DNA of 64,000 nt, from positions 1,792,001 through 1,856,000 of the forward strand of contig CBDCJO010000002.1 in the NCBI GenBank assembly GCA_965217865.1, read 5' to 3'. This document shows positions 38,702-55,542 of this stretch, piece by piece. The translations under genes and the position numbers were made by a program. The DNA comes from Candidatus Latescibacterota bacterium. Its GTDB lineage: Bacteria; Latescibacterota; UBA2968; SICM01. Numbering within the stretch: the first letter of the stretch is position 1; each line of letters begins with the position of its first letter. The notes beneath the pieces were generated by a model. The model made no database searches. It was given only the letters and a program-made list of their open reading frames with translations, and was not told the DNA's origin.

Positions 38702-39061
38702 GGGGGCGCTTTGGGTTCGACGGGGGAGGAATGGTAGTGGCTGCGCGCCGAGGTCCCAGTGCCTCGTTAAACAATTGGGAAAAAACTTAAATGCAGACGA
38801 CTTTTCGTATGCAATGGCGGCCTAACAAATAGGCTTCCCGTCCTGCCCGATCTCGTCCGTAGGGTCGGAGCGGGGCGTCATCTCTTGCGGACTGGTCAAT
38901 GATCTCTTGCCCCGGGATCGCTGATGAGAGTTTTTGGGCTGGCCCTTCATCAACCCTGTCCGTCGGGGTGACGGGGGGCGAGAATAAATGACGGACTATG
39001 CGTGTAGACGTCTCTGTTGGACTTTCTCCGGACGCGGGTTCGATTCCCGCCGCCTCCACCA
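38702..39061 (+). ncRNA. ssrA: tmRNA, tag (A)ADDFSYAMAA
   Basis: 5' GGGGGCG..GGTTCGAC, tag ORF GCAGACGAC...GCGGCCTAA, 3' GGGTTCGATTCCCGCCGCCTCCACCA. Confidence 0.96.
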
Positions 39062-39427
39062 TTCTTCAAGACACAACTCGTCTCTCCATGTAGGTCCTCC
39101 GGAGGGGCGTTCGTCCCATAACCTATTATTTTCAAAGGGTTATGGCGTTCTCCACATCATTCCCGCTTCATTTCCCACCGGTCGAATTCGTCCTGTTTTC
39201 CGGCCTCTCATTCTCTGTTCGGCCCGTATTCTCCGTTCCTGCCGGACCTCGTCCGAAAGTCGTCCGATTGGGTTAATCCATTCAGTATCAACGGGTTGAT
39301 CCGAAAGGGCCGTTTTCGGGGGTTGTGGCAACACGCCCTGTGCCCGGTCTTGAGCACCCGGGAGTTCGAACGGCTCGTCCGATGGCCGATTTCCCCCCTC
39401 TGGTCTGAATCCCGATTCCCGTACCTC

Positions 39428-39458
39428 CCGACAGTCGTGGCCCGCCTCCGGTAGGTAA
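39428..39458 (+). promoter_or_regulatory. Element motif CCGAC-N15-CCGGTAGGTAA, copy 1
   Basis: One of four copies with identical spacing. Confidence 0.65.
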
Positions 39459-39630
39459 CCGGCGACAGAGCCGGGGACGGCGCCCGGCCGCAGCGTCAGA
39501 AACCAGACAACGGACCGGCAGCGAGAGCTGAGGCGGTTGTGGGTGCCGGCGAACCCGCTCCCACGCCGTCCGGCGAGTTCCCACGGCATCCACCATCGTC
39601 CCACCCGGTCGCGAGCTGCCGGAGGTCACG

Positions 39631-39834
39631 ATGTGGAACGCCGATTTCGAGTTGGGAACCATCCGTCCCGACCTGCCTGAAGCAGGGGTCCGCCCCGAGC
39701 CCGAACCGCTTGCCCCGAAAGCGAATCTGGAAGCCATCGCCTCGATTCTGGCCGTTGGTGTGCTCCGCCGGAGAGCCCGAAAGGGCGGCTTTCCGCGCGA
39801 TATCCGGAGAAAGGCGAAGAATCTCCAAATATAA
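39631..39834 (+). CDS. Small hypothetical protein preceding DUF2924
   Basis: SD GGAGG; EAIASILAVGVLR helix. Confidence 0.5.
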   Translation: MWNADFELGTIRPDLPEAGVRPEPEPLAPKANLEAIASILAVGVLRRRARKGGFPRDIRRKAKNLQI

Positions 39835-39902
39835 GTGGGAGAAGGACTTGACTTCTGACGCCAACAGAGCGTTCGTGTCTGACAAACGCGTCCGGTACGT
39901 CA

Positions 39903-40433
39903 ATGAGGGGGTTGCCCGTGAATCAGTTCGGAAAGGGATCGCAAGAGAGCCGCAAGGGTTCCCGCGCCCGCCATTCCGTCCTGCGGCAGCTGGCCACGCT
40001 CGAGACGATGTCGCTGGAACAACTGCACGAGAAGTGGCGCGATCTCTATGGCGGCGAGCCACCCCGCTACAGGAGACGGTTCCTCATCAAGCGCCTGGCA
40101 TATCGCATCCAGGAACTGTTCTACGGCGGCCTGTCGGAGGCCGCCAAGGCGCATTTGCGGCAAGTCGCCCAGGGCGACCCGGTGGCCCGGGTGGACCACC
40201 GGATCTCCGGCAATCCCCAGAACAAGGCGGACATCCTGCCGGGCACCCGGTTCGTCAGGATATGGAAGGACCGACGTTATGAGGTCCTCGCCCACCCGAA
40301 CGGCTTCGAGTACGACGGCCGGATCTTCCGGTCCTTGAGCGCCGTGTCTCGGGAGATTACCGGCACCCGGTGGAACGGCAGGCTCTTCTTCGGGCTGAAG
40401 AAGGGCGACGACGCAGGTGGCCGGCATGCCTGA
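39903..40433 (+). CDS. DUF2924 protein
   Basis: L...W..LYG, LAYRIQE..YGGL, PGT...R.W, SLSAV.R.ITGTRWNG..FFGL. Confidence 0.88.
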   Translation: MRGLPVNQFGKGSQESRKGSRARHSVLRQLATLETMSLEQLHEKWRDLYGGEPPRYRRRFLIKRLAYRIQELFYGGLSEAAKAHLRQVAQGDPVARVDHRISGNPQNKADILPGTRFVRIWKDRRYEVLAHPNGFEYDGRIFRSLSAVSREITGTRWNGRLFFGLKKGDDAGGRHA

Positions 40434-42012
40434 TACGGGCACGAACAACCCCACGGAGAAGAAGCTCATCAACTGCGCCATCTACACCCGCAAGAGTCAC
40501 GAGGAAGGCCTGGAACAGGAATTCAACTCGCTGGATGCCCAGCGGGAGGCGGCCGAGGCCTACGTCGAAAGCCAGCGCATGCAGAGCTGGCGCGCTCTGC
40601 CGGACCGCTACGACGACGGCGGCTTCTCCGGCGGCGACATGGAGCGCCCTGGATTGCAGCGTCTGCTGGCCGACGTGGATGCGGGGAAGGTGGACGTGAT
40701 CGTGGTGTACAAGATCGACCGCCTTTCGCGGTCGCTGCTGGACTTCATGAAGATGATCGAGCGATTCAACCAGCAGGGCGTGAGCTTCGTCTCGGTCACC
40801 CAGCACTTCAACACCACCGACCCGGCCGGGCGCATGTTCCTGGGCATTCTGATCACCTTCGCCCAATACGAGCGGGAGGTCACCGCCGAGCGCATCCGGG
40901 ACAAGGTGGCGGCGGCCAAGCGGCGGGGCAAGTACTGCGGGGGCCCGGCCATCCTCGGATACGACGTGGACCGGGAGCGAAAGAAGCTGCTCGTCAATCC
41001 GGAGGAAGCGCCGCTGGTCAAGCACATCTTCCGGCGATTCACCCATCTGGGCTCGGCCAAAGCGCTGGCCGCGGAGATCAACGGGCAGGGATACCGGACC
41101 AAGTCCTGGACCACGAAGAAGGGAAAACACCGGCTGGGGAGCCCCTGGAATACCGGCCACATCTACCGCCTGCTGGGCAACCGCACCTACATGGGCGAGG
41201 TGGTCCACAAAGGGAAAGGCTATCCCGGAGAGCATGAGGCCATCGTTTCCAAGGGACTGTGGCAGCGGGTTCAGGCGGGTCTCTCGGAGAACACCCGGGC
41301 CAGGCAGACGAAGGCCCGAACGAAGATCATCTCTCCGCTCCAGGGGGTGGTTCGCTGCGGCCATTGCGACGGTGCGATGGGCTTGACCTACACGCAAAAA
41401 GGACCGCGGCGCTACACCTACTATCACTGCGCGAAGGACGCCAAGCGAGCGGTCAGCCGCTGCCGGCTCAAGCGTGTCCCGGCCGGGGACATTGAAAAGG
41501 CGGTGCTGGAGCAACTGAGCGCGGTGTTTCGAACCCCGACGCTGGTGTCCCGGACCTACTTTGCCGCCAAGGGGATGGAAGAAGCCGGGCGGGAGCGGCT
41601 GCTGAAGCGGAAAGAGCGACTGGAAGCCGATCTCCTGAAGGTCCGCGAGCGGGCGCTCGAGGAGGTAACGCCCGACGGCGACGGGTCGGACCCCGGACCG
41701 ACGTTGGTCGAACTCAATCAGGAGGCGGTGACCCTGAGCCGCAAGCTGACGGATGTCTCGGCTCAAGCCCGGGCGTTCGAGGCAGACCCGGTCTCAGAAC
41801 AGGAGGTCGCGGAAGCCTTCCAGAGCGTGGAGACCTTTTGGGAGGATCTGTTTCCCCTGGAACGCAACCGGCTGATCCGGCTGCTGGTCGAGAAAGTGGA
41901 AATCCGGGAAACCGGCATCGACATGGAATTGAAGACCCAGGGCATGACCAGTCTCATCATCGAGCTGAGCGGCCTGGCGACCGAGGCCAGGGAACGGAGC
42001 AACGGCCGATGA
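40426..42012 (+). CDS. Large serine recombinase
   Basis: AIYTRKS catalytic Ser, DRLSRS, FAQYERE, recombinase domain, CGHC zinc ribbon, coiled coil. Confidence 0.93.
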   Translation: MPDTGTNNPTEKKLINCAIYTRKSHEEGLEQEFNSLDAQREAAEAYVESQRMQSWRALPDRYDDGGFSGGDMERPGLQRLLADVDAGKVDVIVVYKIDRLSRSLLDFMKMIERFNQQGVSFVSVTQHFNTTDPAGRMFLGILITFAQYEREVTAERIRDKVAAAKRRGKYCGGPAILGYDVDRERKKLLVNPEEAPLVKHIFRRFTHLGSAKALAAEINGQGYRTKSWTTKKGKHRLGSPWNTGHIYRLLGNRTYMGEVVHKGKGYPGEHEAIVSKGLWQRVQAGLSENTRARQTKARTKIISPLQGVVRCGHCDGAMGLTYTQKGPRRYTYYHCAKDAKRAVSRCRLKRVPAGDIEKAVLEQLSAVFRTPTLVSRTYFAAKGMEEAGRERLLKRKERLEADLLKVRERALEEVTPDGDGSDPGPTLVELNQEAVTLSRKLTDVSAQARAFEADPVSEQEVAEAFQSVETFWEDLFPLERNRLIRLLVEKVEIRETGIDMELKTQGMTSLIIELSGLATEARERSNGR

Positions 42013-42431
42013 CTCCACAGCCGACCCTCACGCTGACCGGGACCGGCAATCTGCAGATCCATATTCCGATGCACATCCGGCGGATGCGGGGCCGGAAGAT
42101 GATTTTCGCCCCCCAGGCGCTGGATGGCGACGTTCCGGATGGCCCATCGGAGATACAGGCGGCCGTGGTTCAGGCCCTGGGCCGGGCTTTCTCCTGGTCG
42201 GACGCGATTGAGAGCGGGGAGTTTCGCTCCATTTCGGATCTGGCGAGGAACCTGGACGTGGACAACTCCTACGTGGTGCGCATCCTGAAGCTGACCACGC
42301 TGGCCCCGGACATCATCGAAGCGATCCTCAACGGCGAGGAACCGTCCGGCCTGTCGCTGGCCCAACTGATCCGCACCTTCCCCATGGACTGGGAGCGGCA
42401 GAGAGCCCTGTTCGGGCTCACCCCGGGCTAA
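42009..42431 (+). CDS. Recombinase-associated HTH hypothetical protein
   Basis: RGRK.I, ALGRA..W, SYV.RIL.LT.LAPDIIEAIL.G. Confidence 0.7.
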   Translation: MTPQPTLTLTGTGNLQIHIPMHIRRMRGRKMIFAPQALDGDVPDGPSEIQAAVVQALGRAFSWSDAIESGEFRSISDLARNLDVDNSYVVRILKLTTLAPDIIEAILNGEEPSGLSLAQLIRTFPMDWERQRALFGLTPG

Positions 42432-42651
42432 GCCCAACACCCCCGTCGCGGGCGGTCCGAGGCCGCGATCCCATCTGTGAGCAGGACGTCCGTCACACCG
42501 CCGGCACCCCGCACAGGACCCGCCAGCGCACGATGTCGGCCCAACTCGTCACCCGTCAGCTGAAGTAGCAGCAGCACCCCCTCCAGCCCGGGTCCGGACA
42601 TCTCAAAGCAGGGTCGGCCCTACCTTTTTTCTCGACCTCTTAATTTTTCTG

Positions 42652-42681
42652 TTGACCTCCTATATGCAGGAGGGGTATATA
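42652..42681 (+). promoter_or_regulatory. Sigma70 promoter with operator-like palindrome CCTCCT-N6-AGGAGG
   Basis: TTGACC-N18-TATATA; palindrome 42656-42673 overlaps the -35 box and spacer. Confidence 0.55.
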
Positions 42682-42802
42682 TTGTGCCTTTGAAACAGGA
42701 CCTGGGTGAGCCGCGTTGGCCCGATAGGCAGACCCGGACGCCAGTCCTGGTCTCCGGTACATGAGCATACCAACCGCGATCTCCCTTGAGAGAGGATTTG
42801 CC

Positions 42803-43481
42803 ATGAGCGGTCAGGCGAGAGGCAGACCACCCGTTGTGGAAATTACCGGCCCACAACGGCGCACATTGCGCGAACTGTGCCGCTTCACCAACCTGCGGGG
42901 GTTTCCCCCGACCATCCAGGAACTCGCGGACATCCTCGGGATATCGACCCCAAGCGTGCGCGACCAGGTCAAGCAACTCGTGCGGAAAGGCTACGTGAAA
43001 CGGGAGTCGAGGAAGGCCCGCGGGCTTACCGTCGTGCGCGAGCCAACAGATGAAGTGTTCGACCTGCAGACCGTTCCCATCATCGGCAGAGTAGCGGCCG
43101 GGCAGCCGATCCTGGCAGAGGAGAACATTACCGGCGAAGTTCTGATCGACAGCCATGCCGCCCGCTCCGGTCGCTGCTTCGCGCTGGAGGTCCAAGGCGA
43201 CAGCATGATCGACGCCGGCATCCGCGACCGGGACCCTGGTCGTGGTTCGGGAGCAGCCCGTGGCGGAGAGTGGCGACATCGTGGTCGCGCTGCTCGATCG
43301 GGACGCCACGGTCAAGCGGCTCTTCATCCGTGATGAGCGTATCGAGCTCCGGCCCGAAAATGCGAGATTTCGCTCCAGGCGGATCGGCCCCGACGATGGA
43401 CTGCGCATCCTGGGCAAGGTCGTCGCGGTCAGCCGGTCCGGGATCAACCGTTCTAACGGTGGAGCGGCCCAGGAAGAGTAA
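42803..43481 (+). CDS. lexA: LexA-like repressor (frameshift near 43235)
   Basis: FPPTIQEL wHTH, GRVAAG cleavage site, GDSM Ser, ATVKRL Lys. Confidence 0.85.
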
Positions 43482-43499
43482 ACAGGGAGAGTCCGGCCA

Positions 43500-44651
43500 A
43501 TGGCAACCTTCAACCTCCGACGCTTCGCCCATCCCGCCGGTCTCAAGGCTATCGCGCCAAAGCACCTCTTGGCGTTTCTGGAACCGCATCGAGCCTACTT
43601 CGCGAGCCGAGGGTTGAGGTTGCCGCCGCCGTCCGCGGCCAACGGGCTGGATTACGAACGACTCGTCTCAGTCCTTATGGACCCGGTCCCGGATACCCCG
43701 AAAGAGCTGCTCGATGCGCTCTTCTTCGTTCATGAGATGTCCACCAACGAGTGCATGGACGTCCTGCTGGAAGAGGCGGAGAGCCACGGCCTCTCGCTGA
43801 ATGGTCAGACGGACCCGACCGCTGCGGACGTCGCCGTCCAGATCTTCTTGAAGGACAAGGCGCTGCTGGAGCGCAAGCACGCCGAGCGTTATCTCACGCG
43901 GCCGCGGTCCTTCGAGCACTTCCAGACGGAGGTGCGGCCGGTCCCTGCGTTCAAACAGCCCTCACCACAAATTCTGGCCGCGCTCGAACACGACCTCGAC
44001 GACTGGTTCCAGCTGAAGAAACGTGGTCGAGGCTCACGGGTGTTCGTGTATCCGAAGGGCGGTTCGATCTGGTTTCTGGTGCGCCACGGCGATCCGTTCC
44101 GGCGCGAAGGCAGCCTCGACGGCGGTCGAACCTCGAGCGTGTTCTACCGGCCGGAGCGGCATGACGTGCTGGTCTATGAACCGGCCATCGGTGAAATTCG
44201 CATGCACGCCCGCAGCAAGGGCGAGAAGGAGCTCTACCGCGTGTCGTTCGGCCGTCATGTCTTCGGCGACGAGGACTTTTTCCCCCGCGCCGGCAAGTAT
44301 ACGCTCGATCCGATCCGGCGGGATGGGGCGGCGTCCGTCGTCTGCACGGACGTCGATGGGATCGACTGGGTGCGGCTCAAGGAAATCCAGATCTTGTGGG
44401 GCGGTGCGGAACAGGAGATCGAGATCCGCAAGGCCGACGATCTGTTCGCCGCGCTGGAGGGAAGAGGACGAAGCATTCCGGTCACGGCGCCGATCCTGCG
44501 AGCGAGCTTTCTGGTCATGTTCACCGATTCGAAGACGCCCCGCACCGTCACCATCCGGCCCTCGAACATCGCCCAGTACAGCCGCGACAGCGACGCCGAC
44601 GTGGTGGAGGACTGGCTCACCAAGCGAGGCTTCATTGAACAGGACGAATGA
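43500..44651 (+). CDS. Hypothetical protein, 383 aa
   Basis: Long ORF with SD directly after the lexA-like gene. Confidence 0.7.
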   Translation: MATFNLRRFAHPAGLKAIAPKHLLAFLEPHRAYFASRGLRLPPPSAANGLDYERLVSVLMDPVPDTPKELLDALFFVHEMSTNECMDVLLEEAESHGLSLNGQTDPTAADVAVQIFLKDKALLERKHAERYLTRPRSFEHFQTEVRPVPAFKQPSPQILAALEHDLDDWFQLKKRGRGSRVFVYPKGGSIWFLVRHGDPFRREGSLDGGRTSSVFYRPERHDVLVYEPAIGEIRMHARSKGEKELYRVSFGRHVFGDEDFFPRAGKYTLDPIRRDGAASVVCTDVDGIDWVRLKEIQILWGGAEQEIEIRKADDLFAALEGRGRSIPVTAPILRASFLVMFTDSKTPRTVTIRPSNIAQYSRDSDADVVEDWLTKRGFIEQDE

Positions 44652-45724
44652 CGAATAGGCCCGGATGCTTCTGGCAAGCGCTGGAATCCGTTCCCGGTTT
44701 GTCGGCCGTGGACGCGGAATGGCGCATGCGTTGCGGCGCCGGGTACGCATCGGCCAAGTCGTTTCTTCGGCCCAACGGCCGGCGGGCCTCGTCGCATCCC
44801 TGTACGGTTCGTCCCGGCTGTGGGTGCGCGCACGAGGTGGTGGTGCACGGGCAGGACGACATCGTCGCGGTCTGTCGATGTGGGCGTGGCTGCATGACGT
44901 ACCCGTTGAAGGCGTCTGATATCGTCCTATACGAACTGGACCGCGCAGCCTTCGACCAGGCGGTGGCTGGCGCCCTCAATCTGATGGGAGAACAGGTCCC
45001 TGTGCCCGGCCTCCATCAGACGACGCGGCTTGGCGTCTACGCACCCACCGCGGGCTTTCGCTTTCCCGTCTATCTGACGATCCAGCTGGAACCGGGCGAC
45101 TTCGATCACATCGTCAATAGTCTCGCGAACCGGACCGATGCACCGTTTGTCCTGTTAGCTCCCACACGCGATCTCTGCACTGTGCGGACGGAAGAGCTTC
45201 TGACAGGCAGGACGTCCGCCTTCGTTTCATTGTCGGAGGAAGTCGCCATCGGTGTAAGCGAGAGGCTGCGCCTCCTCCGGCCCCTCAAGGAGATCCTGTC
45301 GTCGTTCCGGACGGCCAATCTCTCGTCTCCCAAGCATGTCGACTCGATGGTCTTTTTCTCGACGCCACCCGAGGCGACTTGGCGCGACGTAGCGATCAGC
45401 TTCATTGACGGTCACACCGTCTCGGCCCAGGTGAAGTCCGTGCGCAGCGTGTGCAACTACACGCAGATGGGCATGGCCAACAGGAAGAACGGTGAGCCGA
45501 CCAAGCAATGGAAGCTGTTGGAAGGCTTCGCCAACTCCCATGGTCAGATTGACTGGCACGGCAGGCACGCAGCGCTCAGTGTGAAGAAGCAGAAGCAGGA
45601 ACTGTCGAAGCGGCTGCGGGCATTCTTCAGGATCGACGATGACCCCATCGAGTGGGTGAAGGACACTTCAAGCTACTACAGGTGCAAGTTCAGGATTCTT
45701 CCAATCGGAGGTGACGAGTACTAA
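44648..45724 (+). CDS. Hypothetical protein with Cys-rich N-region and possible C-terminal winged HTH
   Basis: ATGA overlap with the previous gene; C..PGCGC.H...CRC...C; VKKQKQELSKRL. Confidence 0.65.
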   Translation: MTNRPGCFWQALESVPGLSAVDAEWRMRCGAGYASAKSFLRPNGRRASSHPCTVRPGCGCAHEVVVHGQDDIVAVCRCGRGCMTYPLKASDIVLYELDRAAFDQAVAGALNLMGEQVPVPGLHQTTRLGVYAPTAGFRFPVYLTIQLEPGDFDHIVNSLANRTDAPFVLLAPTRDLCTVRTEELLTGRTSAFVSLSEEVAIGVSERLRLLRPLKEILSSFRTANLSSPKHVDSMVFFSTPPEATWRDVAISFIDGHTVSAQVKSVRSVCNYTQMGMANRKNGEPTKQWKLLEGFANSHGQIDWHGRHAALSVKKQKQELSKRLRAFFRIDDDPIEWVKDTSSYYRCKFRILPIGGDEY

Positions 45725-46097
45725 AGGCTGCTCTCGTCATCATCCTGTGTCTGAGCCTCGAGCCAGTCTGGTTCGGGGCTTTTTTCATGTCCTCCCGCCC
45801 GCCTCCAGCGAAATTTCGCTGTGCCTGCGGAAGCAGAATCAAAAAAATTTTCCCCTCCGTAAGCCCTCCATCCGACTGATTTCCCAGGCTTTGCCCGCAC
45901 TTGCGCCCCGACCGCCCGGGGCGTCCCACGCCGTCCATCGAAATTTCGCCATTGAGGGGTGAACGCTCCGGCGGGAGCTTCGCCCCGACGGTGGCGCCCG
46001 GAAACCCCGGGCAACGCCCTCTGGGAGGAACCCTCGCCGGACCCGCCTCTCAGGGGGCGATTTCGTTAATGCGCCAGCGCGCGAAAGGAGGTCCGGA

Positions 46098-46427
46098 ATG
46101 ACTGATGTGACCAAGGCGGCTCTGACGCCTGCCAGGCGACGCCTCGTCGAGCTGATGCAGGAGGTCAACTACGGGCGGATCGAACGGCTCGAAGTGCGGG
46201 AGTGGGAGCCCGTGTTCAAGCCGCCGCCCCGGGTGGTGCGGCAGATCGTGTTCGGGAAGGACAACGGACCGAACGCGCGCCGAGCCACCGACGGCTTCAC
46301 GCTCAAGAAAAAGGTGGCGGAGCTGTTCGAGGTCTTCGACCGGGAGCGGTCGCTCTCGATCCGGGAACTCGTGATCGAAAACGGGCTGCCCGTCCGCATG
46401 GCCGTGACGGACGCGATCCGGATCTGA
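46098..46427 (+). CDS. Hypothetical protein
   Basis: SD AGGAGG; 109 aa. Confidence 0.65.
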   Translation: MTDVTKAALTPARRRLVELMQEVNYGRIERLEVREWEPVFKPPPRVVRQIVFGKDNGPNARRATDGFTLKKKVAELFEVFDRERSLSIRELVIENGLPVRMAVTDAIRI

Positions 46428-46611
46428 CTCCGGGCCCGACAGATAGAGCACGGTCCACACCAGACAACAGACCGGCCGCAAGGGCGGAGGTCGTTGTGGG
46501 TGTCGCCTTAACCAGCGTCCTCACAGCGCTTCCGCCTTCTCGTTTTGAGAGCGGTCGTACCGGCACAGGTCGACACCCGCGCGAGATCCTCCCCGGCCCC
46601 GGGGAGGCTCC

Positions 46612-47199
46612 ATGGGTTTCGACAACCAGTACGAGGGCATCGACGCGTATGCCGTCTGGCTCATCAGGTACAAGGCGAGGCAATTGGTGGGACAAGCAGG
46701 ATTCACAGCATCGGACCGGGACGATCTGGAGCAGGAGCTGATCCTCGACCTGCTGGGACGGCTGCCGAAATACGACCCCAAACGCGCCCGGCGCAACACG
46801 TTCATCGCCCGCGTGGTCGAGCACAGGATCGCCACCCTCATCGAGGCGCGAAAGGCCGGCATCCGGGACTACCGGCGCTGCCGCTGTTCCCTGAACGACC
46901 GGTTCGAGGACGAGGACGGCCGCTCGGTCGAGCGGGCGGAAACCGTCGATCAGGAGGACTATCTGCTTCGCACCGGCGCGCAGTCCAAGCCGTCGGAGGA
47001 GCTGAGCGCGCTGGCCATCGACATGGCCGCCGTCTTCGAAGGACTCCCGCCCGGGCTGCGCGATCTGTGCCGGCGCCTCCGGACCGAGACCGTCACCGAG
47101 ATCTCCCGCGACACGGGCATTCCGCGCGGAACGATCTACGAGTCGATCAGGAAGCTGCGGGAGATCTTCGAGGACGCCGGCCTCGAGGACTACCTCTGA
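46612..47199 (+). CDS. Element-encoded ECF-type sigma factor
   Basis: DRDDLEQEL...YDP.R...TFI region 2; EISRDTGIPRGTIY region 4. Confidence 0.85.
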   Translation: MGFDNQYEGIDAYAVWLIRYKARQLVGQAGFTASDRDDLEQELILDLLGRLPKYDPKRARRNTFIARVVEHRIATLIEARKAGIRDYRRCRCSLNDRFEDEDGRSVERAETVDQEDYLLRTGAQSKPSEELSALAIDMAAVFEGLPPGLRDLCRRLRTETVTEISRDTGIPRGTIYESIRKLREIFEDAGLEDYL

Positions 47200-47205
47200 C
47201 CCGCT

Positions 47206-47236
47206 CCGACGGTCCCGGCCCGCCTCCGGTAGGTAA
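47206..47236 (+). promoter_or_regulatory. Element motif copy 2, upstream of the primase operon
   Basis: CCGAC-N15-CCGGTAGGTAA. Confidence 0.65.
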
Positions 47237-47333
47237 TCACCGGGCCGGGCGTTGACGCGGCGTTTCGAGACGGCACGAAGTCCGGCCCGGGCGCGCCCTC
47301 CTGATGGACCACGACCCTATGGAGGCAAGGCAA

Positions 47334-47606
47334 ATGAATCGAGAGATCTACCGCTACAACTTCAACGCGAAGGTGCCGCTGCGGGACGTCGAGGAATCCC
47401 TGCTCCTGGCCGTGCTCGCCACCGAGAGCCTGCACGGCCGGGCCCTGGTGCGGCTTGACGCATCCTTCCGTCTGGACGCGAAGAAGCGCTCCTGCGTGGT
47501 GGACGCGGCGACCGACGTCGGCCGCGCCATCGCCCGCATCTTCACGGGCTTTCTGACGCGCGAATTCGGCGAGGAGGCCTTCAAGGTCGAGCGGATCGCG
47601 ATATGA
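47334..47606 (+). CDS. Hypothetical protein
   Basis: SD GGAGG; ATGA overlap with the primase gene. Confidence 0.65.
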   Translation: MNREIYRYNFNAKVPLRDVEESLLLAVLATESLHGRALVRLDASFRLDAKKRSCVVDAATDVGRAIARIFTGFLTREFGEEAFKVERIAI

Positions 47607-50600
47607 CACGGACGAGGGCGGGCGACGTCAGGGAGTACTACCGGCTGGTCACCGACGTCGACATCGGCCGGTTGGCACGGGAGGTCCTCGCCGAGCGCAT
47701 CGTCCAGGAGGACGACCGCCTCCTGCAATGCGACTGCCCGAACCACCGGAGCAGCAGCCACCGCTCCCTCCACGTCCTGCTCGACAAGCAGGGCTGGTAC
47801 TGCTTCGGCTGCGGGGTGGGCGGCGACGTGCTGCAACTGGTCGAGTTCATCCAATCCGGCACGGTGACCGCTGGGCAATCCGGTCCCATGCCGGAGACCC
47901 ACCAGCGAGCCCGCGACTTCCTGGCCGCCAAGGCCTCTTTGCCACCGCTCGGCCATTACGGGCTTTCCCCCGAGCAACTGAAGGAGATCGAGTCGGAGCG
48001 GAAGCTGGAGGTGCGCGTCCAGGAAGCCCTGACTGAACTGGCGGCGTTCTACCACCGGCGTCTCAAGGAAGCACCGGAAGTCCTGGACTGGCTACACACC
48101 CACTACGGGATCTCCGACGACACGATCGATTCGCTCGCCATCGGTTATGCCGCCAACGGTCCCTGCAAGGACAACGGCAAGCAATACCGTGGCGTCATCT
48201 CCGCCCTGACCAAGCGGGAGAATCCCTTCAACGACTGCGAGCTCGCCGTCACCGGCGCGTTCCGTACCGCCAGTCACGACGGTCTGTTCCCCTTCTTCGA
48301 GGGCCGCATCGTCTTCCCCTATTGGAGTCGTGGCCGCGTGGTCTTCATGATCGGACGCAAGACGCCCTGGACTCCCGCCAACCAATGGGAGCAGAGTAAA
48401 TACAAGAAACTCCCGGTCCACAACGACCACAGGAACCGGCACATTGCGCCGTCGATCAACAACGGCCACCTCTACAACGAGGACTGCCTGCTCTCCCGGC
48501 CCGAGCGCGTCGTCATCACCGAGGGCGTCACCGACTGCATCGCGCTCGTGGAGCGCGGGTTCCCGGCCGTCTCCCCAGCAACGGTGCGGATCAAAGGAGC
48601 CGACTGGGATCGCCTTCTGCCCAAGCTAAGAGGGGTGAAAACGGTCTACATCTGCCAGGACAACGAGGTCTCGCAGGCGGGCCTCAATGGCGCGCTCAAG
48701 ACGGCGAGCGTGCTCACCGGGCACAAGATTCAGACCCGGCTGGTGGTCCTGCCCCTCGATGAATCGCGGCAGGAGGCCCGTCAGGCACTCAAGGAGCGCT
48801 TTGACCTGGATGCGGCCGTCGGAGCGCGAGAGCTTGCCAAACACCTCAATGGCCGCGCATCCCAAGACATCAAGGAAGCCGAGCGTCTGCTCGGTGCGGC
48901 CAAAATCGATGTCAACGACTACTTCGCGTCGGGCCACACGGCGAAGGACTTCGAAGCATTGCTCGGCGAGGCCACGCCGCCGCTCGAATTCGGCATCGAC
49001 CGGCTACCGGCTGATGCCACCGAATCGGAACGTAACCAGCACCTCGAGCCGATCCTTTGCCAGGTGGCGACTCTTTCTCCCCTGGAGCAGAGCAGCCACC
49101 TGAAGCGCATCCAGGAGCGATTCGGCAAGTCAAACCTGTCACTGACCACGTTGCGCGACCAGGTGCGGGCCCTGCGGAAGGAGTGCAAAGAGCAAGCCCA
49201 GCAAGAGCAACGCCGCGAGAAGCACTTCACCGATGCGCCATCCGGCTCCTGCCGGGCTCGCATCGAGGAGGTGTTGATGGAGACCGCGGAGGGGAACGCC
49301 CCCGATTACACTCAGGTCGCCGAGGCCGCCTACGAGTGGTTCACCGCCCACGGCGCGCAGTTCTTCCACACCCGCGACGGGGAACCCTTCCTGCATTTCG
49401 ACAACGCCATCTACTGGATGGACTCCGCCGACCGGGGGCGCAAGCGGCAGTATGCGGCCATGCTCTACGAGCAGACCGGCCTGGTGCCGACGTCGTCCGG
49501 AGGACGCACCTTCTTCGAGGTCCTTCCCAGCCTGGCCCTCATCCGGGGTCAGATGCGGGACCACTTCTCCTGGCTCCACACAGACGTCTCGAACCACACC
49601 GTCTACTTCAACCTCAACAACGACCAGCACGAGATCGCCAGGATCACGCCCGGCGGCATCGAACTCCTCAAGAACGGCGGCAACGCCGACGGCATCATCC
49701 TCGAAGGCTCGCAGAAGATGATGCCGCTCCGGTTCCTGGCCGACGCCGATCCCGCCGAGGCCGACCGGCTGCTGTCAACGCTGATCCGGGACAACCTGAC
49801 CTGCGCCCCGGGCGAAAGCGCGCTGATCCTCTCGTGGCTGTCCTGCTTCCTGCTGATCGACTTTGCCGGCACACGGCCCATGACCCGCTTCGAGGGGCCC
49901 GCCGGCTCGGGCAAGACCACGGCCAGCAAGCTCATCTCGGCGCTGCTCTACGGCGAGCCCCAGCAGAAGAAGAGCACCGACGCGGCCAACTACACCGACG
50001 GCTCGCGGAATCCGCTCATCGTCCTCGACAACATCGAGGTCAAACAGATGACCGAGGAGCTGACCACCTTCCTGCTGACCAGCATCACCGGCATCGCCAA
50101 GGAGAAGCGCAAGAGCGGCACCGACACCGGGACCGTCATCGAACGCACCAAATGCCTGCTCAACACCACCGGGATCGAGCCGCTGCGGGGGGAGCTTTCG
50201 GAGATTCTGTCCCGTTCCTTCGTCATCACCTTCGACTTGGCCAGCCAGGCCGATCACTGCTTTCTCGAAACCGAGGTCATTTCGGCTATTCAGAAAAACC
50301 GCGACCTGATCCTCTCGGCCATGCTCAAGCGCACCCGGCACGTGCTGGCCATGATGCGCGACGGGCGCCGCAGACAGGCGATGAAACTCCTGCTCGAGAG
50401 CCTGGGCGATCACGACAAGCGCCGCTGCAACGACTATCTGAGCCTGATGTACCTCATGATGCTGGCCAGCTCCCAAGAACACGAAGTCGATGCCGGACTC
50501 GAGGCATTGAATCCAAGGTTCCTCGATCAGATCAACGTCCTCAACGCGACCAGCCAGCAGACCGCCCGGGACTCCAACCCCATCGCCACGGCCCTGGAAT

Positions 50601-50950
50601 CGCTCTTCCATGCCTTCCACAATGCGGTGGATCTGGACGAAAAAGCCCGCCTCGGACAGGACGACGACCGGGCAGACCATGTCGCCAAGTTCATCGAGCG
50701 CTACCTGGTGCGCTTCGAAGACCCCACCACCATGGAACCGGTCTCCGCCGGCCGGTTGCTGGCCGCACTGCGCAGAGTCGCCCGGGAGTTCAGCCTGGAA
50801 TTCGAATACGGCAAGCCCGCGCAGCTTGCCCGCCGCATCAGCAACGACATGCAGGTCCTGGGGCAAGCCGGGTTCGTCATCGAGCGGGAATACAATACCC
50901 ACACCAAGACGTTCGACTACCGGATCAGAAAAGTCCGCAGCCCCGAGTAG
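47603..50950 (+). CDS. Primase-helicase (zinc finger + Toprim + P-loop NTPase)
   Basis: CPNH...WYCFGC, ITEGVTD, CQDNE, GPAGSGKT, VLDN. Confidence 0.88.
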   Translation: MTRTRAGDVREYYRLVTDVDIGRLAREVLAERIVQEDDRLLQCDCPNHRSSSHRSLHVLLDKQGWYCFGCGVGGDVLQLVEFIQSGTVTAGQSGPMPETHQRARDFLAAKASLPPLGHYGLSPEQLKEIESERKLEVRVQEALTELAAFYHRRLKEAPEVLDWLHTHYGISDDTIDSLAIGYAANGPCKDNGKQYRGVISALTKRENPFNDCELAVTGAFRTASHDGLFPFFEGRIVFPYWSRGRVVFMIGRKTPWTPANQWEQSKYKKLPVHNDHRNRHIAPSINNGHLYNEDCLLSRPERVVITEGVTDCIALVERGFPAVSPATVRIKGADWDRLLPKLRGVKTVYICQDNEVSQAGLNGALKTASVLTGHKIQTRLVVLPLDESRQEARQALKERFDLDAAVGARELAKHLNGRASQDIKEAERLLGAAKIDVNDYFASGHTAKDFEALLGEATPPLEFGIDRLPADATESERNQHLEPILCQVATLSPLEQSSHLKRIQERFGKSNLSLTTLRDQVRALRKECKEQAQQEQRREKHFTDAPSGSCRARIEEVLMETAEGNAPDYTQVAEAAYEWFTAHGAQFFHTRDGEPFLHFDNAIYWMDSADRGRKRQYAAMLYEQTGLVPTSSGGRTFFEVLPSLALIRGQMRDHFSWLHTDVSNHTVYFNLNNDQHEIARITPGGIELLKNGGNADGIILEGSQKMMPLRFLADADPAEADRLLSTLIRDNLTCAPGESALILSWLSCFLLIDFAGTRPMTRFEGPAGSGKTTASKLISALLYGEPQQKKSTDAANYTDGSRNPLIVLDNIEVKQMTEELTTFLLTSITGIAKEKRKSGTDTGTVIERTKCLLNTTGIEPLRGELSEILSRSFVITFDLASQADHCFLETEVISAIQKNRDLILSAMLKRTRHVLAMMRDGRRRQAMKLLLESLGDHDKRRCNDYLSLMYLMMLASSQEHEVDAGLEALNPRFLDQINVLNATSQQTARDSNPIATALESLFHAFHNAVDLDEKARLGQDDDRADHVAKFIERYLVRFEDPTTMEPVSAGRLLAALRRVAREFSLEFEYGKPAQLARRISNDMQVLGQAGFVIEREYNTHTKTFDYRIRKVRSPE

Positions 50951-50963
50951 GCGCGCAGGGCCT

Positions 50964-51218
50964 ATGCCTGCAGCAAGCGCCGCTCCCACCTGTCGCGCCG
51001 CCCATCGGCAGTCACCAGCACATAGACGTTGTCCCCGCTCACCCCTTCTCCAGGTCGCGCGCCGCGTCATCGGTCAGCTGAACCGGGAAGGACATCAGCG
51101 GGAAGCGTTTGACGAACGCGCGGAGATAGAGGAGCATGAAGGCGGATTGACTCAGACGCAGGCGGAAGAGCAGGCCGAAGCCGAGCGCAAGGCCAAGCGG
51201 AAGCGCGGGCAGAAATAG
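50964..51218 (+). CDS. Phage-type small hypothetical protein or remnant
   Basis: FDERAEIEEHEGGL...AE motif. Confidence 0.35.
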   Translation: MPAASAAPTCRAAHRQSPAHRRCPRSPLLQVARRVIGQLNREGHQREAFDERAEIEEHEGGLTQTQAEEQAEAERKAKRKRGQK

Positions 51219-51464
51219 CCCCCGGGTCGATCACCTTGCGTCGAAACACGGCCCCAAACCAGGCTGGAACGGGTTTGGCCGGAGGCCGGGCAGGATCATA
51301 CCGGGTAAAAACCGGCTGTTGTATTCAGCAGATGACCCGGCATAGCGGGCTCTTGCATATGGTGGTGACATGGGCACAATAACTACAACGGAAATATGAT
51401 GTCAAAGGTAAAACAATCCAACCGGTTCTTACGTGATATAACCATGGGGGGGTAGGTTATAAAG

Positions 51465-51950
51465 ATGCGACAACGGATAAGCATGGTGGCCCAACGCGAG
51501 GAACGGCGTGACACAGTCATGAAACTGGTGCTGGAAGGCTTTACTTACAGGCAGATCGAAGCGCGGACCGGCTTTTCACGTGGGACTATAGGACGGGACA
51601 TCCACGCCCGCCTTGAGGCGGCTGCTGCCGAGTGCCCGCACACCAAGAGGTATCGGCAACTACATCGCGCGCGAATAAATCAACTTCTGATGTGGTGGTG
51701 GGATAAGGCGGCGGAGGACCTTGGCGCGCTCGACCGCGTGCTCCGAATTCTGGAGCGTGAGGCGAAGCTGCTCGGGCTCGATAAGCCCCAGGAACTCCAG
51801 CACAGCGGCGAGATCGCGCTGGAGAAGCCCGACTTGTCGGCGTTGACCAACAAGGATGTCGAGGATCTGCGGGAGTTGGTGGAGGCGTACGCGGAGGCGA
51901 AGGCGAAGGGAAATGGAAGTGCGCGCCTGCCTCGCCTCAAGAGTAAGTAA
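51465..51950 (+). CDS. HTH protein, small-terminase-like (paralog 1)
   Basis: GFTYRQI..TGFSRGTIGRDI; ALDRVLRILEREAKLLGLDKP..QHSG. Confidence 0.55.
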   Translation: MRQRISMVAQREERRDTVMKLVLEGFTYRQIEARTGFSRGTIGRDIHARLEAAAAECPHTKRYRQLHRARINQLLMWWWDKAAEDLGALDRVLRILEREAKLLGLDKPQELQHSGEIALEKPDLSALTNKDVEDLRELVEAYAEAKAKGNGSARLPRLKSK

Positions 51951-52423
51951 TTCCCAAGCGCGGGGAAGGGGAAGCCGGAGGGTGGCGCGTCCTCGGGCAA
52001 GACTTCCTTGACGGATGTTGCGGGAATTCCCTGGTATACTACCAGCGCCTTAACTGCCATCACAATGAAACGGTCACGAAGGACGTTCTGAAAACCGTCT
52101 GGACCTGGCTTCCTCTTCGGCTTTTTGCGAGTACCATTAAAGACGCCATCTGTCCATTCACGCAATGCGGGCGGAACAGGCAACGGGTCCAGAAGAGGTT
52201 TGTTGTCCTTCCGCAGGATCTTTAAGTGGATCTGAACAGGATGGTTGTCATTCACCCAAGCCTTATACAAGGCATGAAGGACTTGCAATGCGGTGAAATG
52301 TGTTTCAGATCTCTTGATCCACTTCGCGATCTCCTTGTCATCGCCGTAAACAAAAGAGTCATATTTGCCCCTCTTAAACTTGCCATCTTTGCCCGGCTCA
52401 AGCCATACGTAGGATTCATTCAT
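51950..52423 (-). CDS. Hypothetical protein; true 3' end uncertain (frame stays open to 51680)
   Basis: MNESYVWLEPGK... lower-GC ORF whose start overlaps the end of the integrase remnant. Confidence 0.35.
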
Positions 52424-52709
52424 TAGACGGTCCCCCCAGATAGGCCGCCCAATCGTCCATGAGCTTGCGGCGACGGTCGAAAAGGTCCGAACGTGCATAA
52501 GCCGCCTCGATCTGGTTGCGGACCTTGTGTGCCAGCGCTGCCTCCGCCACCTCTCGCGGCGCGTCGGTGCATTCCGCCGCCCAGTCCCGGAAGCTCGACC
52601 GGAATCCGTGCGGCACGGCTGGAACGTCCAGGTCCCGAAGCCGGGCGATGACATCGGCGGCGTGAGCCTTGAGGTAGCTGATCGGCTTGATCCGGCTGGC
52701 CAGCGCCAC
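52416..52709 (-). pseudogene. Chimera: Phd/YefM antitoxin-like N-terminus fused to P4-type tyrosine integrase C-terminus
   Basis: IKPISYLKAHAADV followed by PHGFRSSFRDWA...ALAH...AAYARSDL..RRR.LM..W. Confidence 0.7.
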
Positions 52710-52718
52710 CCGCCTCGT

Positions 52719-53060
52719 TTTGCGGGGGTTGCGGGAGTCGTTTCTGGATATCGCGGGGGTTGCCCCTGCACGGTAAATTCTTACAATAAAACGTGTTAGG
52801 ACCGTTTGCGGGGGTTGCGGGGTAAATCCAGAGGTCCTACCCCCTATAAAGACAAGAAAAAACGTCACTCCCATCTCACAGGGCCGAGCCCTAAAAAAAA
52901 TGGCTGTACACATAAGAGATTTTCCCCCGTTACTGCCGCAACCCCCGCAACCACTCTTTCTCATATTCATAAATATATGAAACATCAAATACTTACTTCT
53001 TACTCCGTCTTGCGGGGGTAAGCGAAATCTACCCCCGCACAACCCCCGCAACCCCCGCAA
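52719..53060. repeat. Iteron-like TTGCGGGGG/CCCCCGCAA cluster; putative replication origin
   Basis: About ten direct and inverted copies around AT-rich spacers. Confidence 0.65.
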
Positions 53061-53118
53061 GAGCCAAGGCACCGCACCGCGATAACGGCGGAATGCGTTC
53101 AGCGCCGCGCGATTGCAG

Positions 53119-53149
53119 CCGACATTGCGGCCGTCTCTACGGTAGGTAA
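53119..53149 (+). promoter_or_regulatory. Element motif copy 3
   Basis: CCGAC-N15-ACGGTAGGTAA. Confidence 0.6.
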
Positions 53150-53289
53150 ACGTGAACGACGATCCGTTCCAAACCGCCGGACCGAGACTCCATGAGCCTG
53201 CTGAAAATGCTGAACGACTGCACCGGGAAGGACGAGTGCCTGTGTTGCGCCTCTGCCTCCAGGCGCCTTACAACCCCCCGTGACGCAGG

Positions 53290-53586
53290 TTGGACGTACC
53301 CTGCGGATGCCGCCTGGAAGCATTGGTGACCGGTGACCCCATCCGCGACCAGGCGCTCGCCCTCGGATGGAGCGAGGCCCAGCTCTACCGGAACCGGGGA
53401 CGGTTCCGTTTTCCCTGCGGACAGGACTGCGGCCTCGTCTGCTTCCTGGAGAAGGACAAGCGCATCGGCGAGGTGAACCGCCGGTCCATCGAGATCGTCG
53501 GCCCGCAGCCCCAGGAGAACCGTCTGCGCTTCCACAACCCGGACCAGGATCAACCATGGCTGAAGACAACGACACGCGACGCCTGA
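53290..53586 (+). CDS. Hypothetical protein (5' end probably damaged)
   Basis: IRDQALALGWSEAQLY...GLVCFL. Confidence 0.5.
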   Translation: MDVPCGCRLEALVTGDPIRDQALALGWSEAQLYRNRGRFRFPCGQDCGLVCFLEKDKRIGEVNRRSIEIVGPQPQENRLRFHNPDQDQPWLKTTTRDA

Positions 53587-53849
53587 GCCGCCGATACGCC
53601 AACGCCATGGACGTTCTGCCGCCGGACCTGCTCCGCGCGGTTCAGCAGCACTTCACGGGCCTGCTGTGGGTGCCGGCCGATACGCACTTCTACGAGACGC
53701 GCCGCAAGCTCGTGCTGGCCCTCAGGGATCAGAGCGTCCATACACGGGAGATCGCCCAGTTGGCCGGCGTCACGCCGCGCCGCGTGCGTCAGATCCTGGC
53801 CAGGGCCCGCGGCGCATCGGAGCCGACACATCCCGGCGACTGCCGGTAG
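53556..53849 (+). CDS. Mor/CD3324-like HTH regulator
   Basis: YANAMDVLPPDLLRAVQQHF.GLLWVP; EIAQLAGVTPRRVRQIL. Confidence 0.65.
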   Translation: MAEDNDTRRLSRRYANAMDVLPPDLLRAVQQHFTGLLWVPADTHFYETRRKLVLALRDQSVHTREIAQLAGVTPRRVRQILARARGASEPTHPGDCR

Positions 53850-53853
53850 GTAA
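53823..53853 (+). promoter_or_regulatory. Element motif copy 4, upstream of the terS-like and ParB-MTase genes
   Basis: CCGAC-N15-CCGGTAGGTAA. Confidence 0.6.
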
Positions 53854-53945
53854 CCGATGGGCCGTCCCGCATGGGGACGGAATCCACGCCCGGCGAATCG
53901 TGTTCAGGGACGAGCGGCCGGGGGAAACGATAGGAGGGGAACACC

Positions 53946-54362
53946 ATGCCGCAGAACCCGACGCTGGAGGAGCGGCGCCTGATGACGTTGCGCCTGCGCA
54001 TCGCGGGCTGGAGCTATCGCGAAATCGCGACACGGGTCGGGGTGTCCCCGACGCAGGTCTTCCGCGACATCGGGCGCGTGTGCGACCGGCTGCGAAAGGA
54101 GCAGTACGCGGTCGCGGCACGGCTGCGCACGCAGACGGCGATGGCCCTCGAAGAGAAGCTCACGCGATGGTGGACGCGGGCCGATGTCGACCCGGTCGCC
54201 CTCGACAAGGTGATCAAGCTGCTGGCCGAGCGCAGCAGGCTCTTCGGCCTGTACGCGCCCGCGCAGCAGCAGGTGGACCTGCAGGATCGCGAGCCGGCGG
54301 AGATCAACATACACTTCGGCGACCCCCCCGGCCAAGCGGAAGAGGACGCCCATGGCGCGTGA
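53946..54362 (+). CDS. HTH protein, small-terminase-like (paralog 2)
   Basis: GWSYREIA.RVGVS..QVFRDI; ALDKVIKLLAERSRLFGL.AP. Confidence 0.55.
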   Translation: MPQNPTLEERRLMTLRLRIAGWSYREIATRVGVSPTQVFRDIGRVCDRLRKEQYAVAARLRTQTAMALEEKLTRWWTRADVDPVALDKVIKLLAERSRLFGLYAPAQQQVDLQDREPAEINIHFGDPPGQAEEDAHGA

Positions 54363-55542
54363 TCGCGTAGTAAAGCTGCGGCGGGTCCGGGCCGGAGACC
54401 TGCAACCCGACCCGCGCAACTGGAGGCGGCATCCTCCCGGGCAGCGTACGGCGCTGTCCCGGATGCTCGACCGCCTCGGCCATGTCGATGCGGTGATTGC
54501 CCGGGAGACCCCGGACGGCCTGGTCCTGATCGATGGCCACCTGCGGGCGGAGCTGTCTCCCGACGCCCGGATACCCGTCCTCGTCGTCGACCTGGACCAC
54601 GCGGAGGCGGGAGAGGTGCTGGCCACCCTCGACCCCCTCGCGGCCATGGCCGAGGCGGACCGCGACGCCCTCGCCCGGCTGCTCTCCGATCTCGACGCGC
54701 CTCCGCCCATCGACCTCGGGAAGATGTACGCGCTCGCTCCGGAGCAGGCGGAGCTGAAGCCGGCGGACGTCGAGCCGGTCCTCCCGAGCGAGCCGGTGTC
54801 CCGATGCGGGGACCTCTGGCTGCTGGGACGCCACCGGCTCATGTGCGGCGACGCGACCGAGCGCGGCCACGTCACCCGTCTTCTCGACGGCGCACAGCCG
54901 TCCCTGATGGTCACCGACCCGCCCTATGGGGTGGCCTATGACGCGTCGTGGCGCAAGGAGGCCTTCGGCTTCAGCGGAGGACGCCTCGGCAAAGTCCGCA
55001 ACGACGCCGATCCGGCCTACTGGGCCGCGGCCCTCGAAGCATACAGGAGTCCCGTGACGTACGTATGGTCTCCCTCGGGGGAAAACGTGCTGGTCTTCGG
55101 CAGCATCCTCCAGGCGGCGGGCTATGGCCTGCGAAACCAGATCATCTGGCGCAAGCCCAAAATGGTGATCAGTCGAGGGCATTACCACTGGCAGCACGAG
55201 TGTCTCTGGTATGGGGTCCTCAACGGAAAGACGGCCGGATGGCGTGGAGACAGGAGTCAGACGACGGTGTGGGACGTCACATGGGACCGCAATGTCGAGG
55301 GCGGGCACTCGACACAGAAGCCCGTGGAGTGTATGGAGCGCCCCATACGCAACCACGAGGGCGACGTCTACGACCCCTTCGTGGGCTCCGGCACCAGCAT
55401 CATCGCCGCCGAGCGCCAGAACCGCACCTGTTACGCTATGGAGATAGACCCCGCCTATGTCGACGCCGCGGTCACCCGATGGGAGACCTACACGGGAGGC
55501 GCGGCGGCAAAGGACGGAAAACGTGGAAATGACGGCGGATAA
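54352..55542 (+). CDS. ParB-like domain fused to phage-type N6/N4 DNA methyltransferase
   Basis: PRNWRRH, LIDGHLR, GRHRLMCGD, TDPPY, HSTQKP, DPFVGSG. Confidence 0.88.
   Translation: MARDRVVKLRRVRAGDLQPDPRNWRRHPPGQRTALSRMLDRLGHVDAVIARETPDGLVLIDGHLRAELSPDARIPVLVVDLDHAEAGEVLATLDPLAAMAEADRDALARLLSDLDAPPPIDLGKMYALAPEQAELKPADVEPVLPSEPVSRCGDLWLLGRHRLMCGDATERGHVTRLLDGAQPSLMVTDPPYGVAYDASWRKEAFGFSGGRLGKVRNDADPAYWAAALEAYRSPVTYVWSPSGENVLVFGSILQAAGYGLRNQIIWRKPKMVISRGHYHWQHECLWYGVLNGKTAGWRGDRSQTTVWDVTWDRNVEGGHSTQKPVECMERPIRNHEGDVYDPFVGSGTSIIAAERQNRTCYAMEIDPAYVDAAVTRWETYTGGAAAKDGKRGNDGG

Follow-up and report, generated by a model that had tools for sequence, protein, structure and literature searches.

The use of a sigma factor borne on a mobile element is itself a familiar strategy. 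SigN (ZpdN) of the Bacillus subtilis plasmid pBS32 is repressed directly by the host LexA and activates its own expression (PMC6751061). The phage sigma factors SaPh711_gp47 of Salmonella phage 7-11 and gp36 of phiEco32 send the host core enzyme to bipartite, phage-specific promoters (PMC8948821), and the sigma factor Sig7-Sig8 of the mobile element Tn916 is required for excision (bioRxiv 10.64898/2026.10.01.756105). For the sigma factors of the Wolbachia phage WO, a review describes the targets as undetermined (PMC7397232). Here we analysed a stretch of 64,000 nt from Candidatus Latescibacterota bacterium (GenBank assembly GCA_965217865.1, contig CBDCJO010000002.1, forward-strand positions 1,792,001 to 1,856,000; hereafter the window), in which a phage-derived island begins. 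The island encodes a small sigma factor of the extracytoplasmic function (ECF) type and carries four copies of the bipartite motif CCGAC-N15-MCGGTAGGTAA (P1 to P4, Table 1). These copies are very likely promoters of the island's own sigma factor, because residues of the sigma factor co-vary with bases of the motif in about 100 elements and because transcription starts of phage WO lie just downstream of a homologous motif. New in this work is the test of a residue-base rule on held-out loci.

An exact pattern scan of the whole window returned the four copies, all on the plus strand, and no match was found in 100 dinucleotide shuffles of the window. Allowing three mismatches added a single further site, which was poor. 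An earlier note, made from the window sequence alone, had described these four identically spaced copies, and the scan bore it out. The note had also called the spacers mostly variable. This holds for copies 3 and 4, which differ freely, but not for copies 1 and 2, which are identical at 27 of 31 bases, so that their spacers are not independent. The modules it had placed behind the copies were found as described for copy 1 (DUF2924 protein and serine recombinase) and copy 2 (primase operon). Copy 3, which it had placed ahead of a Mor-like regulator, first meets the broken remnant of a conserved gene of about 270 aa and then the Mor-like open reading frame (ORF). Downstream of copy 4 the ParB-domain methyltransferase was recovered, whereas the label 'terS' for the intervening helix-turn-helix (HTH) protein found support in none of the libraries searched.

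In the 6.43-Mb genome (two contigs) the exact motif occurs six times, comprising the four window copies and two copies in a tandem sister island (window-relative 90085 and 99638); no exact copy lies outside the two islands. A family-wide weight matrix found 52 genome sites of at least 15 bits, with the six island copies in the top ranks. Of the other 46 sites, 28 belong to one dispersed repeat, 21 copies of which can be aligned, motif site included, with left ends of the related elements L112/L106; the remaining 18 reach at most 21.1 bits. A host regulon was rejected for the strong sites, the next-best host sites being mostly this one repeat. A chance origin of the motif was rejected on the shuffles, the genome count and the surplus over shuffles in homologous loci. 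Orthogonality to host promoters, also proposed in the earlier note, has the scarcity of sites outside element DNA as its one argument. The dispersed repeat, found at some 28 places distributed over both contigs, is similar to the left end of the element family and carries a near-consensus promoter copy; its copies are possibly miniature element derivatives that the island sigma could activate. Another repeat with five copies has the form CCGAC-N16-CGGTAGGGTAGG (contig C2, positions 455897, 628318, 3330548, 3509720 and 3741771).

The sigma gene is present in a single copy in the genome. Its 195-aa product lacks sigma1 and a full sigma3 and has a linker of about 50 residues. The family profile aligned to sigma2 of RpoE and SigE and to the helix-turn-helix of sigma4 of RpoE, SigE, RpoS and SigA, and it ranked RpoE of R. 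sphaeroides and SigE of Mycobacterium tuberculosis first among solved structures. The structure model has two helical domains, with helices in the sigma4 region (predicted local distance difference test score, pLDDT, 75). All 47 of the fold matches listed were sigma factors or complexes containing one. The island sigma itself had no Sigma70_r4 match in Pfam and matched only generic HTH models there. A DLEQE motif of the core-binding type of ECF alignments is conserved in the family. The family comprises 2027 clusters at 50% identity (E up to 1e-10), the weaker of which may include other ECF factors. By these sequence features, the island sigma fits the ECF (group 4) sigma factors. It is the covariation described below that indicates a bipartite promoter with boxes read by sigma4 and sigma2 at a fixed spacing.

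To place the motif in related elements, 147 sigma loci were collected; the end of the sigma gene was usable in 136, and removal of duplicates left 108. Unseeded Gibbs sampling of the 80 nt behind the 108 sigma homologues returned CCGACR-N15-CGGTAGGTAW. A weight matrix that started from the four window sites and was refined on the same post-sigma regions that it then scored exceeded 10 bits behind the sigma gene in 90/108 loci, compared with 0.6% of 2160 random windows. The best-fit spacer was 15 nt, the spacing at which the matrix was trained, in 82 of the 93 sites above 10 bits. The 1.63 Mb of these loci contained 102 further sites, compared with 6 in shuffles. They lay ahead of the DUF2924-recombinase pair (37), in the Mor-like/HTH/methyltransferase module (12), before orf109 or the sigma gene (8) or before orf100 (2), and 43 were unassigned. 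Variant boxes recurred within single loci (L200, L203, L205, L152, L154 and L166). Among 67 exact matches in viral contigs, 25 had a homologue of an island gene within 3 kb; nine of these were directly behind a sigma gene, ten ahead of DUF2924 and four at the end of a Mor-like gene. Constraint from coding at the ends of HTH genes was rejected as the origin of the motif, because it lies after the stop codon in some homologues and within the reading frame in others.

Covariation between sigma residues and motif bases was determined in a training set of 37 representatives (<75% identity). Motif position 22 followed sigma residue 78, with glutamate paired to C in 18/18 cases and arginine to G in 16/18. 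This rule was fixed and then tried on 159 other loci (153 from whole-genome profile searches, 6 from a motif scan), with the base at position 22 masked in site calling. The whole-genome profile searches and a narrower alignment were used because an alignment of 133 sequences proved too diverse for pattern scanning. Scores were obtained for 149 of the held-out loci; 86 fell below 75% identity to the training set and to one another, and 54 of the 86 carried a site above 10 bits. In these, arginine was paired with G in 23/24 loci and other residues with C in 29/30. Five of the 54 loci came from the motif scan, in which C was forced; none of them had arginine, and without them the second count is 24/25.

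In a pooled set of 105 representatives (<75% identity, held-out sites >5 bits included), the top partners of motif positions 1–4 were E177, T174, G173 and Y176, located in the sigma4 recognition helix. Those of positions 22–28 included E78, A74, H71, R50 and T63/R67 in sigma2, and D137 was the top partner of position 24, a nearly invariant base. In these alignments the upstream box co-varies with sigma4 residues 173–177 and the downstream box with sigma2, which is the right domain polarity. By alignment to RpoE and SigE, with our own assignment of the E. coli RpoE numbers via a conserved motif, the pairs correspond to Ser172/−34, Arg171/−31, Asn84 turn/−13,−12 and Arg76/−8. All four belong to the published ECF code, with the Asn84 region assigned to −13 and −12 (PMC7776599, Table S1). 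The pair formed by residue 78 (about RpoE 87) and the −14 base is a strong one beyond that table, which has no −14 determinant; the −14 contacts described for the SigH structure are backbone contacts from K96 and R99 (10.1101/534826). On the tree of the family, residue 78 and base 22 each switch 11–14 times and are concordant in 101/105 representatives, whereas the next-best column reaches 85. Binary-trait simulations on the tree with matched changes never reached this agreement (0/265, maximum 83), and for three sigma4 pairs 0/2000 simulations each reached the observed agreement.

Sigma matches in the annotated phage collection were limited to three, all of them phage WO sigmas with 26% identity, and no match was found in the plasmid collection. 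On the family profile, WO sigmas scored 100–109 bits, compared with ≤22 bits for other proteins of the host genome (phage WO records KX522565, MN180251, MW788656 and HQ906663). The WO elements carry a related motif (GGACG-spacer-CGTGTATAT or CGTACATAT) behind the sigma gene and ahead of late operons, and four WO sigmas matched the residue-78 rule by eye (Arg/G twice, Glu/C, Lys/T). The DUF2924-recombinase pair also occurs in phage WO (PMC10299305). In the numbering of the motif, the predicted +1 falls at positions 36–37, 5–6 bases past the motif; a pyrimidine-purine step peaks at 36/37 in 71% of 102 sites, with a second peak (55%) at 33/34. The tables searched among the published Cappable-seq supplements of Wolbachia (PMC12558409), which are differential-expression lists covering part of the 966 wMelPop-CLA starts, place primary starts of wMelPop-CLA at motif positions 36 (WD0590) and 40 (WD0593). 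In wAlbB, primary starts lie at 36 and 37 behind two tandem motif copies, as counted by eye (PMC12558409). That study itself describes only sigma70-like motifs (PMC12558409).

Several observations weigh against reading the motif as the promoter of the island sigma. The sigma domain scores are narrowly above the cutoffs (TIGR02937, 44.3 vs 42.9 bits; PF04542, 24.2 vs 24), and the best fold match of the model had an E of 2.7e-3, with nothing under 0.001. Post-sigma sites above 10 bits were absent from 18/108 loci and from 32/86 held-out loci, in many of which the site has drifted and in some of which there is none. Among the exact viral-contig matches, 42/67 have no island-gene homologue within 3 kb. 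The three sigma4 pairs were chosen after a scan of all columns, and the held-out test covers residue 78 alone. Kinship is the chief reservation: the tree is poorly resolved, with only three independent contrasts on branches with good support. All three are concordant, which in a sign test gives p 0.25, short of significance. In phage WO, one start of the four deviates by 4 nt (position 40), and a third motif copy of wMel had no start in the differential-expression tables searched (PMC12558409). The WO sites are also AT-rich, so that the host sigma70 could use them.

The alternative that survives best is that the motif is a true sigma promoter in the family and a silent relic in this particular island, which is compatible with our reading at the family level. 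The window island has lost a block of exonuclease, Sak4, SSB, resolvase and RecD2 genes that in relatives separates Orf100 from the primase. The LexA-like gene is frameshifted, as seen against intact homologues in L122 and L088; the frameshift lies in a short run of C and may be an assembly error. The gene of about 270 aa behind P3 is broken, and many element relics occur in the host. The earlier note had included packaging genes in the regulon, and no terminase, portal or capsid gene was found among the scanned island ORFs (43 window ORFs, 26 compared with PHROGs, and 36 downstream ORFs of ≥100 aa, picked mechanically); the relative L128 has a terminase and a portal gene downstream of a site at the end of its Mor-like gene. 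Past the ParB-methyltransferase follow a tyrosine recombinase on the other strand and a cargo of GmrSD, restriction-modification, helicase, Schlafen and SRAP genes. Given these losses and the defence cargo, we read the window island as a reduced, defence-laden, partly decayed member of a phage-derived family. Nevertheless, its four sites match perfectly, sigma and recombinase have unbroken reading frames, and both attachment (att) cores are present. Silence of the promoters in this island is possible, though less likely than not.

A second alternative casts the sigma-like protein as a reader of the motif that is not a free-standing sigma but works with the primary sigma of the host, as an activator or by sigma appropriation. 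CCGACA matches the sigma70 −35 consensus at 4/6 bases (consensus as in PMC12558409), the WO sites bear TATATA-like runs and the scores of the sigma family are marginal. However, both domains co-vary with their own box in the ECF order, the DLEQE motif is conserved and the GC-rich window sites lack a sigma70-like promoter, which makes this alternative very improbable. Slightly less credible still is binding of the motif by the Mor-like protein, Orf109 or Orf100, the covariation of sigma then stemming from the common descent of a linked cassette. In its favour, only tens of bases separate the motif from the sigma gene and the two are passed on together, few of the independent contrasts have support, and Orf109 (80/108 loci) and Orf100 (86/108) are nearly as widespread as sigma, for which alone covariation was computed, but the repeated concordant switches of residue 78 and base 22 far exceed the next-best column, the signal sits on known promoter-reading helices and a Mor-like gene was detected within 10 kb in only 3/108 loci.

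The preferred reading, in which the island sigma drives P1 to P4, agrees with the proposal of −35 and −10 boxes ahead of integration, replication and late modules and is supported by motif position, by the polarity of the covariation and by the WO starts. In this mechanism, the sigma factor would bind core RNA polymerase and read CCGACR through the sigma4 helix and CGGTANGT through the sigma2 domain, with Glu78 and Gly173–Glu177 as the predicted base readers. Transcription would begin at the predicted +1, and genes for integration/excision, replication and, in intact relatives, packaging would be turned on together. The sister island (contig C2, 1881711 to about 1911700; L002, L003) encodes DUF2924, recombinase and primase but no sigma. 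It also has a RecD2-like gene that is split and a cargo of type I restriction-modification genes, and the two promoter copies that it retains may be driven in trans.

Control of the sigma gene itself seems to involve an intermediate step. The earlier note had drawn a direct step from the LexA-like repressor to sigma. This is doubtful, because lexA is frameshifted and its candidate operator palindrome (CCTCCT-N6-AGGAGG) lies over its own promoter, with no exact copy upstream of sigma in the window; an intervening activator is more likely. We lean towards the order repressor, Orf358, sigma, regulon, in which the LexA-like repressor would release a lexA-orf383-orf358 operon and Orf358 would activate orf109-sigma from two CGAAATTTCG sites. 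In the model of Orf358 (pLDDT 87), residues 246–356 align to the DNA-binding domains of CadC, AdeR, PrrA and KdpE with middling Z scores (5.2–5.7), which is no more than suggestive of a winged helix at the C-terminus. Orf358 had no Pfam or PDB sequence match, and no family is assigned to the atlas neighbours of its C-terminal part. Two CGAAATTTCG copies were present in 19/20 loci with a close Orf358 homologue, in 0/10 loci with a distant or N-terminal-only homologue and in 2/47 loci without one; one partial case was set aside and many of these loci are close kin. This step is thus built on co-occurrence among close kin and on a fold match of Z 5–6, which counts against it. Loci with other upstream genes have other repeats at the place of CGAAATTTCG, which suggests that the upstream activators are swappable modules.

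No autoregulatory site was apparent in the window, as no motif of at least 8 bits lies between lexA and sigma, save one 9-bit site on the other strand. No anti-sigma factor was identified; Orf109 and Orf100, the neighbours of the sigma gene, had no family match in the domain and PHROG libraries, and domain-library scans of Orf383 gave none either. A terminator-like hairpin (45753–45781) lies between Orf358 and Orf109. An element of about 75 nt ahead of the sigma gene recurs in the P1 leader and folds into a long hairpin; across 20 sequences, one-sided G-U/G-C changes are numerous, and several of the sequences end in a U-run. It is a candidate attenuator or protein-binding RNA and may add attenuation to the control of sigma. 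A known RNA family was rejected for it, since Rfam matches in 38600–60000 were limited to the transfer-messenger RNA (tmRNA).

The island has the integrase and flanking direct repeats of a prophage, namely the serine recombinase and an 18-nt att core (39053–39070) that recurs at window-relative 89711, which gives a length of about 50.7 kb. The left 3.4 kb of the island recur from 89711 onwards at 95% identity, and a degenerate att-like repeat lies near window-relative 119700. The G+C content climbs from about 0.53 to 0.63 at the island boundary. Related sequence was seen in four DNA sequencing runs. The coordinates of the features are collected in Table 1.

Table 1. Island genes, predicted promoters and candidate regulatory elements, numbered from the first base of the window.
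Feature	Position	Strand	Remarks
tmRNA gene, integration site	38702..39061	+	Island begins at tmRNA 3' end
P1, predicted sigma promoter of integration operon	39428..39458	+	Predicted +1 at 39463-39464
Leader element, candidate cis-regulatory RNA	39502..39572	+	P1 leader; common with pre-sigma region
DUF2924 protein	39903..40433	+	PF11149, E 3.6e-47
Large serine recombinase (integrase)	40417..42012	+	PF00239, PF07508, PF13408; phrog_95
Palindrome CCTCCT-N6-AGGAGG, candidate operator	42656..42673		Over sigma70-like promoter region of LexA-like gene
LexA-like repressor	42761..43481	+	PF01726, PF00717; frameshifted near 43234, peptidase domain split
Orf383, conserved	43500..44651	+	Homologue in 33/108 loci
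Orf358, candidate activator of sigma operon	44648..45724	+	C-terminal domain like OmpR/PhoB winged helices
Two CGAAATTTCG palindromes, candidate Orf358 sites	45809-45818, 45939-45948		Ahead of orf109-sigma
Orf109, conserved gene upstream of sigma	46098..46427	+	Homologue in 80/108 loci
Conserved long hairpin, candidate attenuator	46459..46534	+	Ahead of sigma gene
ECF-type sigma factor, 195 aa	46612..47199	+	TIGR02937, PF04542, phrog_1740
P2, predicted promoter of replication operon	47206..47236	+	6 nt past sigma stop; predicted +1 at 47241-47242
Orf100, first gene of replication operon	47304..47606	+	Behind post-sigma site in 81/90 loci
Primase-helicase	47603..50950	+	Domain-library and PHROG matches
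P3, predicted promoter	53119..53149	+	Ahead of broken ~270-aa gene and Mor-like ORF; predicted +1 at 53154-53155
Broken remnant of conserved ~270-aa gene, C-terminal part	53308-53574		Behind P3
Mor-like HTH protein	53556..53849	+	phrog_836, E 5e-4; weak match to late transcriptional activator family
P4, predicted promoter of late operon	53823..53853	+	Same place relative to Mor-like gene in relatives; predicted +1 at 53858-53859
HTH protein	53946-54362	+	phrog_645 match; terminase identity without library support
ParB-domain DNA methyltransferase	54352-55542	+	Domain-library and PHROG matches

The stop codon of the Mor-like ORF falls within P4. The HTH protein behind P4 has a paralogue at 51465–51950 that also matches phrog_645, and pieces of the HTH gene behind P4 and of the start of the methyltransferase gene are scattered over several host sites. 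The defence cargo opens with a small HTH protein (59489–59716) that matched MAD1 of the methylation-associated defence system below the cutoff (58.5 vs 80 bits). The host part of the window contains a selenocysteine tRNA (34890–34987, minus strand). In two relatives (L111 and L113), sigma and 4–6 promoter copies persist amid genes without a phage family match (12 L113 ORFs were scanned, none of which matched); these are perhaps domesticated regulons.

It is probable that the elements form a widespread phage-derived family, from sponge- and sediment-type uncultured phyla to phage WO, with one sigma lineage and a readable promoter code that includes an Arg78-G/Glu78-C switch at −14. If so, related elements that share a cell could, through the code, either remain orthogonal or be driven in trans, and the family would supply a natural library of sigma-promoter pairs that are orthogonal to each other, under upstream activators that can be exchanged. 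The promoters of the orphan sigma of phage WO would be named, and the targets of the extra sigma factors of Wolbachia, an open question (PMC7397232), could be tested with existing start-site data. The gene that many prophages and islands carry under the anonymous label 'sigma-70 family' would become a master switch with named promoters and predicted starts. With residue 78, the ECF recognition code gains a candidate determinant of specificity, testable by a single substitution. The sigma-promoter pair is also a candidate orthogonal switch, since all exact sites of this genome lie in element DNA. A literature search, in which subscription journals were thinly covered, found no paper on the promoters of this family or on a phage WO sigma regulon; ECF reclassification papers were outside it, and the sigma family may already have a group number.

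By analogy, the island sigma would work like SigN, gp47 and Sig7-Sig8, a likeness drawn at the level of function. SigN is likewise an element-encoded, ECF-like sigma behind a LexA-type switch, with an element-confined regulon that includes replication genes (PMC6751061). This likeness is one by description. In contrast to pBS32, the repressor of the island belongs to the element itself and apparently works by way of another regulator; its sigma gene has no promoter copy in front of it, and the integrase is part of the predicted regulon. With SaPh711_gp47 and phiEco32 gp36 the island would share the use of a phage sigma with bipartite promoters; those systems differ in belonging to lytic podoviruses, in serving late genes only and in their consensus, GTAAtg-16-aCTA (PMC8948821), and the two proteins are absent from the three phage-collection matches of the island sigma. 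The Tn916 factor resembles it as a sigma of a mobile element needed for excision. However, it is a split, two-subunit sigma of a conjugative element (bioRxiv 10.64898/2026.10.01.756105), whereas the island sigma is a single chain and belongs to a phage-derived family that has a serine recombinase. The two-domain architecture is that of ECF (group 4) sigmas, four published residue-base pairs of which reappear in this independent family, and the pair of residue 78 and −14 is additional to the published code (PMC7776599, Table S1). Closest are the small sigmas of phage WO, which belong to the same family by profile, occupy the same place before a replication operon and are followed by a homologous bipartite motif, at 26% identity to the island sigma and with an AT-rich variant of the motif.

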